Notes: generated by a model not told the origin, from the sequence alone. A DNA stretch of 64,000 nucleotides from an uncultured Lachnospiraceae bacterium (GCA_964565805.1 CAZMGH010000002.1:46084-110083), one strand, 5' to 3'. Shown: positions 31,409 through 39,496, counted from the first letter of the stretch. A program made the numbers and translations.

Positions 31409-33364
31409 ATGAAAATGACTAAAACAACACAACTCATCGAGTTTTACGTGGCTGAATATCGCAAGGAGGCAAAAAAGAAAAGCAATGTCCGGGCATCCGG
31501 CTATGAGAAGCGCCTTGGAGCCTTGAACAAAACATTAAAACGTCTGGGACCCCATCAGGTAAGCCGGTCGATTTTGGAGGATTATCACCGGCAGATCAAA
31601 AATCTTTTTCATCTTGCGTCAAAATATCGGAATAAGTCAGCCATTTCTTTTCTGGTATCCCAGACCATCCCCCAGCTGGTTCGGCTGGATCTGCATATGG
31701 TCCTTCCGGATGACCTGGAGTCTCTGGATGAAGGATTTTTTGACTATATCCGGAGCCATATGCCAGGCGCTGTATGTTCCCACACCCTTTTTGAACTGTG
31801 TCAAAGATACCGCAGATATTGTATTGAAAATCGCATTACAGAGTTGGTGCCGTCCCGGCCGGAACTGGAATTTCCAAAGGCCCTGTCCATGAACCGGCGT
31901 TTTATCCTTCATATCGGCCCTACGAACAGCGGAAAAACCTTTCAGGCTCTGGAAGCCTTGAAAAATGCAAAGCACGGTGTTTATCTGGGGCCTTTGCGCC
32001 TTCTGGCCCTGGAAGTTTATGAACGGATGAACGCGTACCATACTCCATGTACCATGCTGACAGGGCAGGAATGTATCGAAACCCCTCACAGCCGGGTTAC
32101 TGCCTCTACGATAGAAATGGCGGACATTAATGACACCTATGACATTGCAGTTATTGATGAGGCACAAATGGTTTCCGATACGGATCGGGGACATTCCTGG
32201 ACTCGGGCCATTTTAGGGCTTTTAGCGAATGAGATCCATATTTGTCTCAGTCCGGTGGCGGAGCCGGTAGTGACCCATTTGATCCGCCTGTGCCAGGACC
32301 ATTATGAGATCCGCCGCTATGAACGGAAGATTCCTTTGTACTGTGAGGAGACTTCCTTTGTATTTCCCGATGATGTCCAGCCTGGGGATGCCCTCATTGT
32401 ATTTTCCAAAAGATCGGTACTTGATGTGGCCGGACGGTTGGAAGAGCGGGGGATCCGCGCTAGCGTGATCTATGGAAGTCTACCTCCGGAGATCCGGCGG
32501 CGTCAGGTGGAAATGTTTGCCTCCGGCCAGACAAAGGTAGTGGTGGCCACAGATGCTATCGGCATGGGGCTGAACCTTCCTGTAAGACGGATCGTATTTG
32601 TCCAGGTGGAAAAGTTTGACGGAACTTTAAGACGGCCCTTAAAGACGCCGGAGATCAAGCAGATCGCCGGCCGTGCGGGAAGATACGGCCTTTATGACGC
32701 TGGATATGTGACAGCCATGGGGGATGAGGCGCTGGACTATGTGCGGGAGCAGTTTGACGCTCCGGAGGCGCCTATTGAAACGGTAAGTCTCGGCTTCCCT
32801 CAGGTGCTTCTTGATATGGATGAGTCTTTGGATGCCATATTAAGAGTATGGCATGATGTTCGGACCCGGTCGCCTTTTGTTAAGGTAAGTATTGAAGACA
32901 CCCTGTTTTTATATGATCAGGCCAACAGACGCAGAAATTATATTGACGGCTTTAAGGACAAAAGGACACTGTACCGGATGATCAGCTGTCCCATTGATGT
33001 AAAGGACCGTCATGTGGTAGATTTGTGGAACCATTACTGTGAAGTTTATACCGCTGACGTGTCTCTGCCCTATCCGGACAAAAAGGATCTTAAAGAACTG
33101 ACCGGAATCCAGAAATATGAAACTTATTATAAACAGCTGGATCTATATTATCAGTTTTCTGTCCGCATGGGAAAGATTATTGACACAAAGTGGCTATCCC
33201 GGGAAAGGACCCGGACGGAAAGTACCATTATGCGTTATCTTCTTGGAAAGAAGACCAATTATATTGCCACATGCCGGTACTGTGGCCGGAAGCTTCCCGT
33301 AGGCTATAGCTTTGGCGTATGCCCCAGCTGTTTTAAAGTATCTAAAAGCTCCAGATCCTCCTGA
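31409..33364 (+). CDS. Suv3-like SF2 helicase with C-terminal Cys4 motif
   Basis: GPTNSGKT, GVYLGPLRLLALEV, TIEM, VIDEAQM, SWTRAILG, IYGSLPP, ATDAIGMGLN, QIAGRAGR; ends CRYC...CPSC. Confidence 0.85.
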   Translation: MKMTKTTQLIEFYVAEYRKEAKKKSNVRASGYEKRLGALNKTLKRLGPHQVSRSILEDYHRQIKNLFHLASKYRNKSAISFLVSQTIPQLVRLDLHMVLPDDLESLDEGFFDYIRSHMPGAVCSHTLFELCQRYRRYCIENRITELVPSRPELEFPKALSMNRRFILHIGPTNSGKTFQALEALKNAKHGVYLGPLRLLALEVYERMNAYHTPCTMLTGQECIETPHSRVTASTIEMADINDTYDIAVIDEAQMVSDTDRGHSWTRAILGLLANEIHICLSPVAEPVVTHLIRLCQDHYEIRRYERKIPLYCEETSFVFPDDVQPGDALIVFSKRSVLDVAGRLEERGIRASVIYGSLPPEIRRRQVEMFASGQTKVVVATDAIGMGLNLPVRRIVFVQVEKFDGTLRRPLKTPEIKQIAGRAGRYGLYDAGYVTAMGDEALDYVREQFDAPEAPIETVSLGFPQVLLDMDESLDAILRVWHDVRTRSPFVKVSIEDTLFLYDQANRRRNYIDGFKDKRTLYRMISCPIDVKDRHVVDLWNHYCEVYTADVSLPYPDKKDLKELTGIQKYETYYKQLDLYYQFSVRMGKIIDTKWLSRERTRTESTIMRYLLGKKTNYIATCRYCGRKLPVGYSFGVCPSCFKVSKSSRSS

Positions 33365-34661: not shown

Positions 34662-34702
34662 TTGGGCCGGAATAATTGGTTTTGCTTGAAATCGTTTGAC
34701 TG

Positions 34703-34785
34703 TTGACAAGGAAGAGTTTTTTGTAGTAGACTATTAATGAAAGAAAAGCAAAGGCGCTGGGAATTCGGGTTTCCAGCGTTTTTTT
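34703..34785 (+). promoter_or_regulatory. Promoter plus leader terminator with overlapping ANTAR-like hairpin
   Basis: TTGACA 34703-34708; candidate -10 TAGACT 34727-34732; AGC-AAAGGC-GCT at 34747-34758 overlaps the 5' arm of a 10-bp terminator stem (34754-34779, loop TTCGGG) followed by a T run, upstream of the RBS. Confidence 0.65.
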
Positions 34786-34815
34786 GATTGGAAAAAGTTA
34801 AGGAGGATAAGGTCT

Positions 34816-36129
34816 ATGCAGGAATTAATTGACCACACCGAAGGTATTAACCGGCTTATGGCCCGCTTTGGCGTAAAGTTCGGGATTTATAAAAACGGGG
34901 AATTTCATGAACAGCTGTTTCCCTTTGATGCCATTCCCCGGGTGATTCCTCATAAAGATTTTCAGTATCTTGAAAAGGGACTGATCCAGCGGGTAGACGC
35001 GTTAAACTGTTTTTTAAGAGACATCTACACAGACAAAAAGATCATTAAGGATCAGGTGGTCCCGGAGGATTTTGTATTTTCCTCATCCGGGTATCTTCCC
35101 CAGTGTGATCATTTTACGCCGCCCAAAGGGATTTACAGCCATATTTCCGGAATCGACCTGGTACTGGGAAAGGATAAGGAATGGTATATTTTAGAGGATA
35201 ATTTAAGAATCCCATCAGGAGCTTCCTATCCTTTAATTGCCCGGGAGATCTGCCGGAGAGTTTCGCCGGTCACTTTTGCTAGCCATCCTGTTGTAGATAA
35301 CCGGAACTATGCGTCAATGTTAAAAGAAACCCTGGATTGGGTCAATACAGGAGGCATACCGGTGATCATGACGCCGGGGCGGTATAACGCGGCCTATTTT
35401 GAACATTCCTACCTGGCAGAGCGGACAAAAAGCGCGCTGGCCACATGTTCGGATCTGTTTGTAGAGGATAATTATCTGTACTACAGGGATTATCGGAATA
35501 CAAAGCAAAAGGTAGGCGTTATCTACCGGAGAATTTCGGATGAGTATCTGGATCCAATGACATTTTTGCCGGAATCCCTCATCGGTATTCCTAATATTAT
35601 GGATGTATACTGCAGCGGTCATGTGGCCATCGTCAATGCCCCGGGCAACGGAATCGGCGATGATAAAGGAATCTACTATTTTGTTCCTAAAATGATCCGC
35701 TATTATTTAGGGGAAGAACCTATATTAAAAAATGCGCCTACATACCTGCCTTTTTATGAGGAGGACCGGAAATATGTTCTGGATCATCTAAACAGACTGG
35801 TGGTTAAGGATGTGTCTGAAGCCGGGGGCTATGGCGTGATCTTTGGAGACTCTCTGACCCGGGAAAAGCTTGAGTCTCTTAAAGCGCTGATACAACAAGA
35901 GCCGAGAAGGTTTATTGCCCAGGAAGTCATCGACTTTCAGGATATGGAAGTTATGGACGGGAATGAGCGAGTTTTGCGTAAGGCGGACCTGCGGGCCTTT
36001 GTCCTTACAGGACAGACCACACGGGTATGGGCCAGCGGGCTCACCCGTTTTTCAAGAAACGCGGATTCCTTTGTAGTTAATTCGTCACAGGGAGGAGGAT
36101 TTAAAGACACATGGGTATTATCTCAGTAG
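34816..36129 (+). CDS. Circularly permuted ATP-grasp type 2 ligase
   Basis: FPFDAIPRVI, ISGIDLV, ILEDNLRIPSGASY, MTPGRYNAAYFEH, IYRRISDEYLDP, NAPGNGIGDDK, KDVSEAGGYG, NSSQGGGFKDTWV. Confidence 0.92.
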   Translation: MQELIDHTEGINRLMARFGVKFGIYKNGEFHEQLFPFDAIPRVIPHKDFQYLEKGLIQRVDALNCFLRDIYTDKKIIKDQVVPEDFVFSSSGYLPQCDHFTPPKGIYSHISGIDLVLGKDKEWYILEDNLRIPSGASYPLIAREICRRVSPVTFASHPVVDNRNYASMLKETLDWVNTGGIPVIMTPGRYNAAYFEHSYLAERTKSALATCSDLFVEDNYLYYRDYRNTKQKVGVIYRRISDEYLDPMTFLPESLIGIPNIMDVYCSGHVAIVNAPGNGIGDDKGIYYFVPKMIRYYLGEEPILKNAPTYLPFYEEDRKYVLDHLNRLVVKDVSEAGGYGVIFGDSLTREKLESLKALIQQEPRRFIAQEVIDFQDMEVMDGNERVLRKADLRAFVLTGQTTRVWASGLTRFSRNADSFVVNSSQGGGFKDTWVLSQ

Positions 36130-36785
36130 AAAAAGCAGATCACTTGTACTGGCTTGGCCGGTATACAGAGCGGGTGTATACCACCCTGCGGATTTTTTTC
36201 CATATTTACGATAAGATGATCGAACAGCCGGAGGGGATTTACGCGTCATATTGCCAGCGTTTAAACATCCCGGATATTTACACCTCCAACCGGCAGTTTG
36301 TTCAGTCTTATCTTTTTGATCCGGTCAATCCGGACTCCGTGTATTCCAATATGAGCAGAGCTTATGACAATGCGGTTGTCCTTAGAGATGAACTTAGCAG
36401 CAATGTGCTTTCCTACATCCAGCTGGCCTTAGATACCTTTGGAGCATGCGCCAAAACAACGGCACCTCTTTTGGAGCTTCAGCAGGTGATCGACTATCTT
36501 CTGGCTTTCTGGGGCTGCGCTGATGATTACGTGGATCAGGAGGACTGCAGGAATATTCTTAAATGTGGCAAATATGTGGAGCGGCTGGATCTTTACATCC
36601 GGCTGGATTATCACAAAGATGAACTGGAAAAAGAATATAAAAAACTGATCAATCGTCTCCAGCGGGCAAATCTGTGCTATAATGAAAAAAATCTGGAGCA
36701 CATTGAGACGCTTATTCATCAGGGGATGCCCCAGACAACAGATAAGCAGGAGGCATTAGGCTGTCTTGGAGGGCTTATTACCTGA
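36111..36785 (+). CDS. Alpha-E domain protein
   Basis: LYWLGRYTER and KYVERLD (the two ER motifs), DPVNPDSV, AYDNAVVLRDELS. Confidence 0.88.
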   Translation: MGIISVEKADHLYWLGRYTERVYTTLRIFFHIYDKMIEQPEGIYASYCQRLNIPDIYTSNRQFVQSYLFDPVNPDSVYSNMSRAYDNAVVLRDELSSNVLSYIQLALDTFGACAKTTAPLLELQQVIDYLLAFWGCADDYVDQEDCRNILKCGKYVERLDLYIRLDYHKDELEKEYKKLINRLQRANLCYNEKNLEHIETLIHQGMPQTTDKQEALGCLGGLIT

Positions 36786-36801
36786 AGACAGCCAAAACAT
36801 T

Positions 36802-37590
36802 ATGAAAAAACTAAAATTTAAGTATGGTATGAGGCTGGATTTTTCCTCTCCCGTAACCGGGCATTACTTTGCTTTGCGGTGTATTCCCCAAAGTTCATCT
36901 AGGCAGGAGATCACTCTGACCCGGTGCCAGGTCATGCCGGATGGGGAGCTTTATGAAATAAAGGACGGCTTTGGCAACATGAAACTTAGCGGATGCATTT
37001 TGGATCCCCATGATTATTTTGAATATGATATTGAAGGAACGGCCCTGGTTCAGGGAATGGGAGAGGAGGAAGGCCCCCTTCATCCGATGTATAAATACCC
37101 ATCCAGGTACACAGCCTGTGAGCCGGTGGTTATAGATTATGCCTCCAGGCTGGCCCGGGAATGTAAGTTATCGGGAGCGCATACCCCTTTGGAAAAGGCA
37201 GTTTATGTCATGAATGACCTGTACAGGCATTTTTCTTATGCGCCTTCGGTGACAGGAATCCATACCACCGCCGCCCAGGCTCTTACTTTAGGTAAAGGTG
37301 TGTGCCAGGATTATGCCCATATTATGATCGCTCTTATGCGCTATATGGGCGTACCTGCCAGATACGTCAACGGTTTGATGATCGGCGAGGGCTTTAGCCA
37401 TGCCTGGGTGGAAATTTATACTGGTACCGGATGGTACGGGCTGGATCCCACCAATTGTTTGCATATTGATGATTATTATATTAAGCTGGCCTGGGGGAGA
37501 GATTACGGGGACTGTGTCATTGACAAAGGCCGGTTCCTTGGCAGCGCCGGACAAACTCAGACCATTACTGTAAATGTGGAGGAGATCTAA
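36802..37590 (+). CDS. Transglutaminase-like protein with intact triad
   Basis: GVCQDYAH (Cys), SHAWVE (His), LDPTN (Asp), GRDYGD; N-terminal Bact_transglu_N-like segment. Confidence 0.92.
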   Translation: MKKLKFKYGMRLDFSSPVTGHYFALRCIPQSSSRQEITLTRCQVMPDGELYEIKDGFGNMKLSGCILDPHDYFEYDIEGTALVQGMGEEEGPLHPMYKYPSRYTACEPVVIDYASRLARECKLSGAHTPLEKAVYVMNDLYRHFSYAPSVTGIHTTAAQALTLGKGVCQDYAHIMIALMRYMGVPARYVNGLMIGEGFSHAWVEIYTGTGWYGLDPTNCLHIDDYYIKLAWGRDYGDCVIDKGRFLGSAGQTQTITVNVEEI

Positions 37591-37591
37591 G

Positions 37592-38530
37592 ATGACTCAG
37601 ACAGTTGTGTCTATGGAACTGCCGGTGGACGAATACCTGCAGATCAAAAAGAATCGGATCATGCCGGAACATCCCACAGGGGATGAAAAACGCATTGCCA
37701 TTGTTACCGGGACCCACGGGGATGAGCTGGAAGGCCAGCTTGTCTGCTACGAGCTGCTTCGCCGTCTGAAGGCCCAGCCGGGCCAGCTTAAAGGCATTGT
37801 GGATGTTTATCCCGCGTTAAACCCCCTGGGGATTGATTCCATTACCCGGGGGATTCCTATGTTTGACTTGGATATGAACCGGATCTTTCCAGGAAGTGAC
37901 CAGGGGCCTATGATGGAGACTTTAGTATACCGTCTTATGGAAGATTTAAGGGGAGCGGATCTTTGCATCGATATTCATGCCAGCAATATTTTTCTCATGG
38001 AGCTGCCCCAGATACGGATCAATGAAATGACTGCTCAAACGCTTATCCCTTTGGCTAAAAATATGAATGTGGATTTTATATGGGTTCATGCTTCAGCTAC
38101 AGTGCTGGAATCTACGCTGGCTTTTAGCTTGAATAAGATCCATACCCCCACCCTGGTAGTGGAAATGGGGGTAGGGATGCGGATCACAAAAGAATATGGC
38201 CATCAGCTGACCGAAGGGATTTTTAACACAATGAAAGCTCTTGGAATATGGGAAGGAGAAACTGGCCCTGTGCGTAGTCCTATAATCTCAACAGACCGGC
38301 AGATTGGCTATCTTAATGCGGACCGGGCGGGAATCTATGTACCCTGCGTCCAGATCGGCCAGGCCGTGAAAGAAGGGGACCGGCTGGGAGAAATTTTAAA
38401 TCCTCTCACAGGAGATGTGGAGCAGGAGGTCAGATCCCCTATGGACGGTATCTTATTTACCTGCAGGGAGTATCCGGTGGTTTACAGCGGATCTTTACTG
38501 GGAAGGATCGTGGGAGGTGAACATCAGTGA
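37592..38530 (+). CDS. M14-type succinylglutamate desuccinylase/aspartoacylase family hydrolase (apparently active)
   Basis: GTHGDE zinc motif, DMNRIFPG, IDIHAS, EMG; C-terminal barrel-sandwich region. Confidence 0.9.
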   Translation: MTQTVVSMELPVDEYLQIKKNRIMPEHPTGDEKRIAIVTGTHGDELEGQLVCYELLRRLKAQPGQLKGIVDVYPALNPLGIDSITRGIPMFDLDMNRIFPGSDQGPMMETLVYRLMEDLRGADLCIDIHASNIFLMELPQIRINEMTAQTLIPLAKNMNVDFIWVHASATVLESTLAFSLNKIHTPTLVVEMGVGMRITKEYGHQLTEGIFNTMKALGIWEGETGPVRSPIISTDRQIGYLNADRAGIYVPCVQIGQAVKEGDRLGEILNPLTGDVEQEVRSPMDGILFTCREYPVVYSGSLLGRIVGGEHQ

Positions 38531-39462
38531 GAAAAGCAGAAATTTTTTCCATGGACAGTCCTTACAGGGAAACATTAAAGATCACCGGCTATACGTTTGG
38601 CCACGGGCAAAAGTCTGCCTGTATTATTGGGAGCATGCGGGGAAATGAGGTTCAGCAGCTTTACATATGCTCTCAGATCATAAGAAAGCTGAAAAAACTG
38701 GAAGCCTGCGATTCCATTGTGGCGGATAAGGAGATTCTTGTGATCCCTTCAGTAAACCATCATTCTATGAACATCGGAAAACGGTTCTGGCCGGTGGATA
38801 ATACGGATATTAACCGGATGTTTCCCGGATATGACCAGGGGGAAACCACTCAGCGCATTGCCGCAGGGGTTTTCCAGCAGGCCAAGGATTATGATTATGG
38901 TATCCAGTTTGCCAGCTTTTATATGCCCGGGGATTTTATCCCTCATGTTCGGATGATGGACACAGGCAAGCAAAACACCAGCCTGGCGGGGCTGTTCGGC
39001 CTTCCCTATGTAGTCGTGCGCAAGCCCAGGCCTATTGATACCACAACATTAAATTATAACTGGCAGATCTGGGATACAAACGCATTTTCCGTATATACGA
39101 CGGAAACGGATTTTATTGATGAGGTGTCTGCCCGTCAGGCAGTGGCGGCGGTGCTTCGTTTTCTCACCCGGATGGGCATTTTAAAATATCACAGTCATAA
39201 CGGCTATATTGCCACAGTCATCGGCGAGGAGGAGCTTACTTCTGTCCGAACAACCATGGGAGGCATTTACCGCCGTCTGTGTCATCCGGGAGATGAGATT
39301 CATATGGGAGAGCCTTTGGCGGAAATCGTCCATCCTTATGAGGGAAACGTTATATCCACCGTACTTTCACCGACAGAGGGAATCGTATTTTTTACCCATA
39401 AAAAACCTTTAGTTACGGAAAATGAAGTGATCTGCAAGATCATACGCAGGATGCACCAGTAA
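38527..39462 (+). CDS. M14/AstE-like paralogue with degenerate metal site
   Basis: GSMRGNE in place of HGxE; DINRMFPG retained; IQFAS in place of IDxH; GTGA overlap with the previous gene. Confidence 0.85.
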   Translation: MRKAEIFSMDSPYRETLKITGYTFGHGQKSACIIGSMRGNEVQQLYICSQIIRKLKKLEACDSIVADKEILVIPSVNHHSMNIGKRFWPVDNTDINRMFPGYDQGETTQRIAAGVFQQAKDYDYGIQFASFYMPGDFIPHVRMMDTGKQNTSLAGLFGLPYVVVRKPRPIDTTTLNYNWQIWDTNAFSVYTTETDFIDEVSARQAVAAVLRFLTRMGILKYHSHNGYIATVIGEEELTSVRTTMGGIYRRLCHPGDEIHMGEPLAEIVHPYEGNVISTVLSPTEGIVFFTHKKPLVTENEVICKIIRRMHQ

Positions 39463-39496
39463 AAAAAGCGCCGGAAACACTTGCTGCTTCCGGCGC
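39461..39496 (-). terminator. Terminator for the flavin reductase gene
   Basis: GCGCCGGAA...TTCCGGCGC stem with an A7 run on its left (U tract on the minus strand). Confidence 0.6.

Follow-up and report, generated by a model that had tools for sequence, protein, structure and literature searches.

A predicted amide-making and amide-breaking operon of a Lachnospiraceae bacterium contains two separable modules and carries a leader in common with nitrogen-assimilation genes

Why would a bacterium keep a predicted amide ligase and a pair of deacylase-family proteins side by side in one operon? The question is raised by five co-directional open reading frames (ORFs) on the + strand, at positions 34816-39462 of a 64,000-nucleotide (nt) stretch of DNA from an uncultured Lachnospiraceae bacterium (GCA_964565805.1 CAZMGH010000002.1:46084-110083; the whole stretch, which is C2:46084-110083 in our numbering of this genome's contigs, is called the window here). 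In order, they encode a circularly permuted ATP-grasp ligase, an alpha-E protein, a transglutaminase-like papain-fold protein (TGase) and two M14-type proteins of the AstE/AspA family, which we call M14A and M14B, and the same five genes and borders had been drawn in an earlier interpretation of the window made from its letters alone (the sequence-only reading). The first three genes form a trio that is often followed by a gene for the proteasome-family protein Anbu, and in the statement of Iyer et al. (2009) quoted in PMC3495828 this trio is predicted to ligate peptide tags, with the TGase-like peptidase reversing the reaction. The sequence-only reading described the trio as a computational prediction for which no product had been demonstrated, in agreement with the literature (PMC6376114, PMC5666114, PMC3495828), and two structural studies found no Anbu activity, complex or product (PMC6376114, PMC5666114). 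In a full-text literature search we met neither functional work on the trio nor any report connecting it with AstE/AspA proteins; the M14 variant was possibly already drawn by Iyer et al. (2009). We propose, with moderate confidence, that the locus is a nitrogen-regulon operon for making and breaking amides, whose two separable modules would act on a small acidic amide for salvage. What is new here is the link to a nitrogen-regulon leader and the evidence of module loss.

The linkage of the five genes is not due to chance. A pattern search of genome contigs with an M14B alignment returned more than 586 loci, and the best 80 were analyzed; these come mostly from Lachnospiraceae (Mediterraneibacter, Blautia, Dorea, Faecalicatena, Hungatella, Lacrimispora and Brotaphodocola) and also from Butyricicoccus and Anaerotignum, a spread that puts the source organism near Mediterraneibacter among the gut Lachnospiraceae. 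M14A lies directly upstream of M14B in all 80, and among the 65 loci with at least 4.7 kb of upstream sequence, the full trio precedes the pair in the same order in 52, decayed remnants of it in 3 and no trio gene in 10. Order and orientation are kept in dozens of genomes while the flanking genes differ from one to the next, the entire cluster recurs at 84-97% identity in a genome of the same genus, and the M14 pair is patchy among 41 relatives. At the level of the class, the ligase was found in 9 of about 399 evenly sampled Clostridia genomes (nine families, 64-75% identity) and M14B orthologs in 8, all of them within the nine ligase carriers and with M14B starting about 2.4 kb past the end of the ligase gene on the same strand. 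Both genes were thus present in eight genomes, the ligase with its trio only in one (G343) and M14B only in none (Fisher p = 6e-16), so that the M14 genes are conserved with the trio, as the sequence-only reading had required.

The junctions between the genes are equally close, and the ORF coordinates, with start codons picked from ortholog N-termini, confirm that they are overlaps or gaps of at most 16 nt. The ligase and alpha-E genes overlap by 19 nt, 16 nt separate alpha-E from the TGase ATG at 36802, a single nucleotide separates the TGase from the M14A ATG at 37592 (which has the ribosome-binding site GGAGGAG), and M14A and M14B overlap by the 4 nt GTGA. Each start has its own Shine-Dalgarno sequence, and the genes appear, from this arrangement, to be translationally coupled.

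Such closeness speaks for the closed writer/eraser cycle of the sequence-only reading, in which the ATP-grasp enzyme would attach Glu, Asp or a short peptide to a protein, alpha-E or another, or else assemble a storage polymer; the product would be passed on or cross-linked by the TGase and trimmed off by the M14 pair. Such a cycle would be a bacterial counterpart of tubulin glutamylation by TTLL (ATP-grasp) and CCP (M14) enzymes. Both the co-occurrence and the apparent coupling fit it, M14B retains residues for substrate binding, as would be expected of a reader or adaptor, and the prediction of Aravind's group, as far as PMC3495828 quotes it, was of peptide tags reversed by a peptidase. However, the M14 pair occurs without an intact trio in at least 13 loci, the 10 trio-less ones and the 3 with decayed remnants, and in six loci that have independently lost the ligase it has remained intact behind the operon promoter and leader. 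In three of these (L032, L047 and L060) promoter and leader lie directly before M14A; in L042 and L089 fused alpha-E/TGase fragments come next after the leader, and then the intact pair, and in L077 the leader precedes the TGase, M14A and M14B. Two other genera (G015 and G016) carry the M14A-M14B pair without trio or leader, between dinG and purL, and the reverse arrangement, a trio with no M14 pair, is that of G343. These loci point to independent deletions of the ligase module, with the deacylase pair kept under the same control. Because the pair survives repeated ligase loss together with promoter and leader, it would have a selectable function without the ligase and would not be merely the eraser of the ligase product, which speaks against a pure writer/eraser relationship and against the sole-eraser role that the sequence-only reading gave to the pair. 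The same reading had made alpha-E the acceptor, and a comparison of orthologs revealed no conserved Gln/Glu or acidic acceptor tail, nor any other evident acceptor, on alpha-E or on the other four proteins. Co-regulation with scavenging genes, described below, also speaks against a nitrogen store, and work on the homologous Yersinia trio detected neither a complex nor a product (PMC6376114). We consider a closed cycle of this kind rather unlikely.

Separability in both directions would also suit two independent modules that occupy one operon since both are needed under nitrogen limitation, with M14A/B acting in the cytosol as a deacylase or carboxypeptidase of general use on N-blocked amino acids and peptides taken up by the cell, and the trio unrelated to it. 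In favor of independence, an unlinked AstE/AspA gene in another genus (G421) has its own copy of the leader, and the leader set also includes importers of peptides and amino acids. Yet every M14B of the class-wide sample is accompanied by the trio, always adjacent and in the same order, in eight families; the TGase/M14A and M14A/M14B junctions are tight, and more shuffling would be expected of unrelated modules, so that full independence is unlikely in our view. We prefer an operon of two modules that can be separated but are nearly always kept together in Clostridia.

The surroundings of the cluster and of the trio-less pairs offer some further observations. The cluster or the M14 pair often sits between a gene for a DinG-like helicase and purL (FGAM synthase), as in many loci (among L012, L013 and L044-L094), which suggests that this site is the ancestral chromosomal position in Lachnospiraceae. 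In L012 (7139-9640, - strand) and L013 (7579-10018, - strand) the pair, without trio or leader, comes after genes for a FapA-domain protein of 475 amino acids (aa) and a protein of about 320 aa, for which no Pfam family scored above threshold; its weak match to 'bacterial proteasome activator' reaches 24.7 bits, where 29.5 would be required. The FapA and 324-aa proteins encoded upstream of the pair in G015 and G016 were considered as alternative partners and rejected, as they recur in 0 of 80 loci. A LysR regulator gene is divergent upstream in several trio-less loci, and it too was rejected as a general partner, not being general. A small sigma-70-family gene (regions 2 and 3) is found right after M14B in some trio-less loci, and its coordinates are 10929-11513 in L057 and 10953-11492 in L060.

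When the two modules would be needed is suggested by the sequence ahead of them, where the sequence-only reading had noted a dedicated leader. Further copies of this leader were sought first with a loose regular expression and folding. A covariance model was then trained on the window's own leader together with those of the operon in 35 other genomes. The model scores 35.3 bits on the window's own site (E 4e-4, genome-wide) and finds seven sites at E <= 1 in the 2.7-Mb genome, all 5' of sense-strand genes and most of them preceded by a promoter. Besides this operon, the genes so preceded are glutamine synthetase type III (glnN), a putative formamidase or aliphatic amidase (named by eye from its ORF), an amino-acid ABC transporter operon, glnA followed by a gene for a 183-aa ANTAR protein and gatCAB, an Opp-like peptide ABC operon, and an amtB-glnK fusion; a second amino-acid ABC operon was found by the looser regular expression only. 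Outside the window, the sites lie at C6:30961-31006 (+), C26:28872-28920 (+), C60:7415-7470 (-), C6:19283-19339 (-), C6:65251-65307 (+), C1:92197-92244 (+) and C72 about 3188 (-). Since the leader is common to glnA, glnN, amtB-glnK and other nitrogen genes, the operon is placed in a predicted regulon for nitrogen assimilation and scavenging, and this membership suggests when the system is switched on, namely under nitrogen limitation. The nitrogen link of the sequence-only reading is retained in this way and its storage cycle is not, because shared control with scavenging and assimilation genes is a sign of nitrogen starvation, and salvage would fit starvation better than storage.

Membership in a nitrogen regulon matches the published control of the trio in Burkholderia cenocepacia, where it is sigma-54/NtrC-dependent under nitrogen limitation and an ntrC mutation lowers expression of the genes for DUF404/407, DUF403 and two transglutaminase-like proteins 6- to 9-fold (PMC5491218). 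Anbu, in turn, is highly expressed in nitrogen-starved Pseudomonas putida, as a citation in PMC6376114 has it. Sigma-54/NtrC and a leader terminator are unrelated devices, and they appear to converge on the same signal. In G421, the best matches to the model precede the operon, glnN, glnA and a further, stand-alone AstE/AspA gene, which suggests that these bacteria may make general use of AstE/AspA deacylases for scavenging nitrogen. The leader of this stand-alone gene (L103) lies at about G421:C1 497016-497064 on the minus strand, and its 316-aa product has the HGGE, His and Glu positions intact (Pfam, 1.5e-20).

The leader itself is short. A sigma-70-type promoter, TTGACA-18 nt-TAGACT, was found by promoter scan at 34703-34732 (+ strand, 10 of 12 matches), at a position relative to the leader motif that is matched in most orthologous loci, and the leader element follows at 34739-34785 (+ strand), at the extreme 5' end of the predicted transcript. 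From the covariance model and folding, it comprises a mini-hairpin with a 3-bp stem and a hexaloop (AGC 34747-34749, AAAGGC 34750-34755, GCT 34756-34758) and an intrinsic terminator whose 5' arm shares sequence with this mini-hairpin; the terminator stem spans about 34750-34779 and the U-run is at 34779-34785 (leader fold -20.5 kcal/mol, z -2.6). One architecture is common to about 45 of the 54 loci whose ligase-gene upstream regions were compared: TTGACA, 17-18 nt, TAnnnT, 7-14 nt, AG(C/U)-AA(A/G)GG(C/U)-G(C/U)U, then a G+C-rich hairpin and a U-run. Among 36 loci, 9 of 13 pairs of the terminator stem covary, and the sequence of its 5' arm is conserved well beyond the needs of pairing. For the mini-hairpin, the paired fraction in the same 36 loci is 96%, inflated by their selection for at least two of the three pairs, and there are 10 compensatory cells; the stem variants AGC/GCU, GAC/GUC and AAC/GUU are compensatory. 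No Rfam family reached its gathering score anywhere in the window, and the leader gave only chance-level matches well under that score (E 0.1-4). Seven loci (L016, L017, L019, L025, L040, L041 and L055) have tandem leader units of mini-hairpin, terminator and U-run, 50-80 nt apart, and L016 and L017 carry an extra tetraloop hairpin, GACCGTC-CTTA-GACGGTC, ahead of the second unit.

A hexaloop hairpin over a terminator arm brings to mind the sites bound by ANTAR antiterminators. ANTAR regulons mostly control nitrogen genes, their hexaloops require A at position 1 and G at position 4, and the published binding site is a dual hairpin (PMC3369931). The hexaloop of AGC-AAAGGC-GCU at 34747-34758 has this A and G, and the 3' side of its short stem lies within the terminator's span. 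The genome also has a single ANTAR gene (PF03861, 57 bits), the 183-aa ORF directly after glnA, and the size of the ORF and the glnA-nitR layout make a receiver-ANTAR (REC-ANTAR) regulator its probable product. The clostridial glnA-nitR layout provides a precedent; our literature search on clostridial NitR/glnA antitermination gave nothing usable. We rejected a canonical dual-hairpin ANTAR site, as there is no room for the P1 hairpin, the -10 box ending 7-14 nt before the leader motif in most loci. Because the second hairpin is missing and no room exists for one, we call the leader only ANTAR-like and do not present it as a proven member of the family. It resembles the regulons of EutV, NasR, AmiR and clostridial glnA-nitR in its A1/G4 hexaloop over a terminator 5' arm, its glnA-linked ANTAR gene and its nitrogen targets, and it is unlike them in having one hairpin instead of the two published, an element 0-14 nt after the predicted start and no Rfam match. 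It may therefore be an undescribed, minimal antitermination signal.

The chemistry of the second module is best approached through M14A (37592-38530, + strand), predicted to be a zinc deacylase of AstE/AspA type (Pfam AstE_AspA_cat, 4e-23). Its ORF is open from an ATG at 37574, and orthologs start at the Met at 37592. The protein aligns over its full length with 3cdx, 2qj8, 3na6 and the DoeB structure 6twm, and its intact HGDE, DIHAS and VEMG motifs stand at the equivalent conserved positions, which we take to be the zinc ligands (HxxE and the distal His) and the catalytic Glu. M14A would nonetheless be a distinct AstE/AspA subfamily, because it scores far below every NCBIfam equivalog cut-off. 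In this it differs from the AstE, aspartoacylase and DoeB deacylases, M14-like zinc hydrolases whose HxxE, third His and catalytic Glu it otherwise keeps, and also in being always paired with a dead paralog.

That paralog is M14B (38527-39462, + strand; Pfam AstE_AspA_cat, 5e-10), about 22% identical to M14A. Alignment of the active-site motifs shows that the His of HxxE has become Arg (MRGNE), that the third zinc ligand is gone (IQFASF) and that the catalytic Glu is gone as well (SVYTT), and the RGNE, FAS and YTT replacements stand at these positions in all four aligned orthologs. M14B is thus a predicted pseudoenzyme that keeps the fold of the family. It retains the DxNRxFPG motif and the P-x-V-R arginine, and its conservation, 63-97% in relatives, is the highest among the five proteins. 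The pair of amidohydrolases seen by the sequence-only reading is in this way reduced to one, since M14A is intact and M14B is without zinc ligands and catalytic Glu.

The first module begins with the ligase, a circularly permuted ATP-grasp protein of 437 aa (34816-36129, + strand) with strong matches to Pfam CP_ATPgrasp_2 (3e-132) and CP_ATPgrasp_1 (9e-121), whose cut-offs are 32 and 23 bits. Its nearest solved relative is the proteobacterial PDB entry 3n6x (1.7e-111, 376 bits), labelled 'putative glutathionylspermidine synthase' by structural genomics and not from an assay, and its C-terminus, GGGFKDTWVLS[RQ], is conserved. Alpha-E (36111-36785, + strand; 224 aa) reaches 81 bits with Pfam Alpha-E (1.4e-22, cut-off 20.8), and the match spans only profile positions 6-165 of 294. 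It is about 70 residues shorter than the Pfam model, a short form found throughout the clade (median 224 aa in 61 orthologs), with the motifs GRYTER and KYVERLD; its AF2 model is all-helical (pLDDT 92), and a sequence search of the PDB gave no match for it. The TGase (36802-37590, + strand; Pfam Transglut_core 8e-23, Bact_transglu_N 1e-8) has an ORF open from a TTG at 36766, and its orthologs start at MKKLKF, that is, at ATG 36802; the translation contains an intact Cys-His-Asp triad (GVCQDY, SHAW, LDPT). The domain calls of the sequence-only reading are correct by Pfam for all five genes, and an NCBIfam search named none of the five proteins.

The trio described here has the same three families in the same order as the known operon (COG2308-COG2307-COG1305; Iyer et al. 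2009; Valas & Bourne 2008), a very similar ligase, an intact TGase triad and a link to nitrogen limitation as in Burkholderia and Pseudomonas. It differs in its shorter alpha-E, its two appended AstE/AspA genes, its leader terminator in place of sigma-54/NtrC and its lack of a proteasome-family gene. Anbu is a frequent fourth gene of the trio family and not an obligatory one, and here no proteasome-family gene (PF00227) was found in the genome, in a search that did find matches in control genomes. None lies near the cluster in 10 cluster-bearing genomes; eight of the nine other genomes have none at all, and one has a good match on another contig. These results are consistent with the proposal of the sequence-only reading that the M14 pair occupies the slot of Anbu.

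Of the tagging or storage scheme as a whole, then, the domains, the linkage and the nitrogen link stand, and the second amidohydrolase, the sole eraser, the alpha-E acceptor and the store are unsupported or weakened. In the explanation that we favor, the first module would be the ancient trio, an ATP-dependent carboxylate-amine ligase with an obligate helical partner, alpha-E, and a Cys-His-Asp amidase or transamidase. The second would be a probable M14A/M14B heteromer of an active zinc deacylase and its dead paralog, in which M14B, with its carboxylate-binding residues kept, would most likely be a substrate-binding or scaffolding subunit. Transcription would start at the sigma-A promoter and meet the terminator almost at once, and nitrogen limitation would allow read-through, probably by way of an RNA-binding antiterminator on the hexaloop hairpin in the 5' arm; the best candidate would be the genome's single REC-ANTAR protein, encoded behind glnA. 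M14A/B would hydrolyze an N-acyl or peptide amide with a free carboxylate, imported or endogenous (the Opp and amino-acid importers are co-regulated), and release the free amino acid for nitrogen salvage. The ligase with alpha-E and the TGase would form and rework a related amide; the analogy here is with glutathionylspermidine synthetase/amidase (GspSA). GspSA is a bifunctional enzyme in which an ATP-grasp-type ligase is joined to a papain-like Cys-His amidase that reverses the reaction. As in GspSA, a carboxylate-amine ligase is paired here with a papain-like amidase, and the label of 3n6x points the same way; unlike GspSA, the two are separate proteins, and alpha-E is an additional partner. 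The substrate is more likely to be a small acidic amide that is widely available (a short peptide, or an amino acid in N-acyl or gamma/beta linkage) than a dedicated protein tag, and a common small substrate is favored because the ligase is highly conserved across phyla, as its score with the proteobacterial structure indicates.

Several results weigh against this explanation. The very tight co-occurrence and the translational coupling would also fit a strict writer/eraser pair, the best equivalog score of M14A is 62 bits with DoeB against a cut-off of 403, and other equivalogs (AstE, ASPA and MpaA) give at most 20 bits. The alpha-E fold has no solved match (Foldseek against the PDB, best E 0.44, TM 0.30). 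With regard to control, the leader has only one hexaloop hairpin, with 0-14 nt between the predicted transcription start and the element and hence no canonical P1 hairpin, and some weaker matches of the covariance model in a more distant genome (G372) resemble generic terminators.

We also considered whether the cluster might make a secreted peptide or another secondary metabolite, of the graspetide or siderophore type, given that ATP-grasp ligases and papain-fold enzymes occur in natural-product pathways such as those of closthioamide (CtaG) and graspetides. No precursor-peptide ORF is present in or next to the cluster: intergenic gaps are at most 16 nt, and the 154 nt before the first gene (34662-34815) hold only the promoter, the terminator and the ribosome-binding site, AAGGAGG at 34800-34806 (+ strand), 9 nt before ATG 34816. 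Neither an exporter nor an immunity gene was found in or next to the cluster, the genes flanking it vary between genomes, and the tie to the regulon of primary nitrogen assimilation also speaks against such a role, which we regard as very improbable. The five proteins are probably cytoplasmic, because no signal-like hydrophobic N-terminus was seen by eye on any of them, and this would accord with a small-molecule substrate.

Writing with ATP-grasp and erasing with M14-clan enzymes is the logic of TTLL/CCP tubulin glutamylation and deglutamylation and of RimK, and it also underlies the cycle of the sequence-only reading; those systems employ other ATP-grasp and M14 subfamilies, and here the hydrolase module survives without the ligase. 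At its boldest, the idea would be that the trio and the M14A/M14B heteromer are one ATP-driven amide cycle, on only in nitrogen starvation, either as a TTLL/CCP analogue or as a glutamine-synthetase-independent capture and release of nitrogen on a carrier, under an undescribed single-hexaloop ANTAR antitermination that governs the whole Lachnospiraceae nitrogen regulon. We find this distinctly unlikely; if true, it would give the chemistry of the widespread ATP-grasp/alpha-E/transglutaminase(/Anbu) system.

Returning to the salvage operon with two modules, its interest lies in a trio that occurs in many bacterial phyla and has been without a known product since it was predicted in 2008-2009. 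Replacement of Anbu by a deacylase family of understood chemistry, in which an amino acid is released from an N-acyl or peptide amide, would narrow the type of bond that the system handles. Natural 'knock-outs', the lineages with the deacylase pair only and the one with the trio only, can be compared, and a short leader in a delimited nitrogen regulon suggests which condition induces the operon and could serve as a simple reporter. The operon may help gut Lachnospiraceae to cope with nitrogen limitation.

At its 3' end, the cluster is bounded by a hairpin at 39468-39496 with a 12-bp stem (-18.4 kcal/mol, z -3.6), which the sequence-only reading had taken as the downstream boundary. It does mark this boundary, but it is not the terminator of the operon, as there is no U-tract on the + strand; because the run TTTTTTT is on the minus strand only, we assign it as the terminator of the convergent flavin-reductase gene, the 3' neighbor by Pfam. 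The 5' neighbor is a gene for an FMN-dependent dehydrogenase. The neighbors in the window thus differ from dinG and purL, and upstream they also include a gene at 31409-33364 for a Suv3-type DExQ RNA helicase (Pfam DEXQc_Suv3, 3e-62, and SUV3_C). This helicase family is best known from mitochondria, and the protein is 96% identical in the genome of the same genus (G001) that carries the entire cluster.

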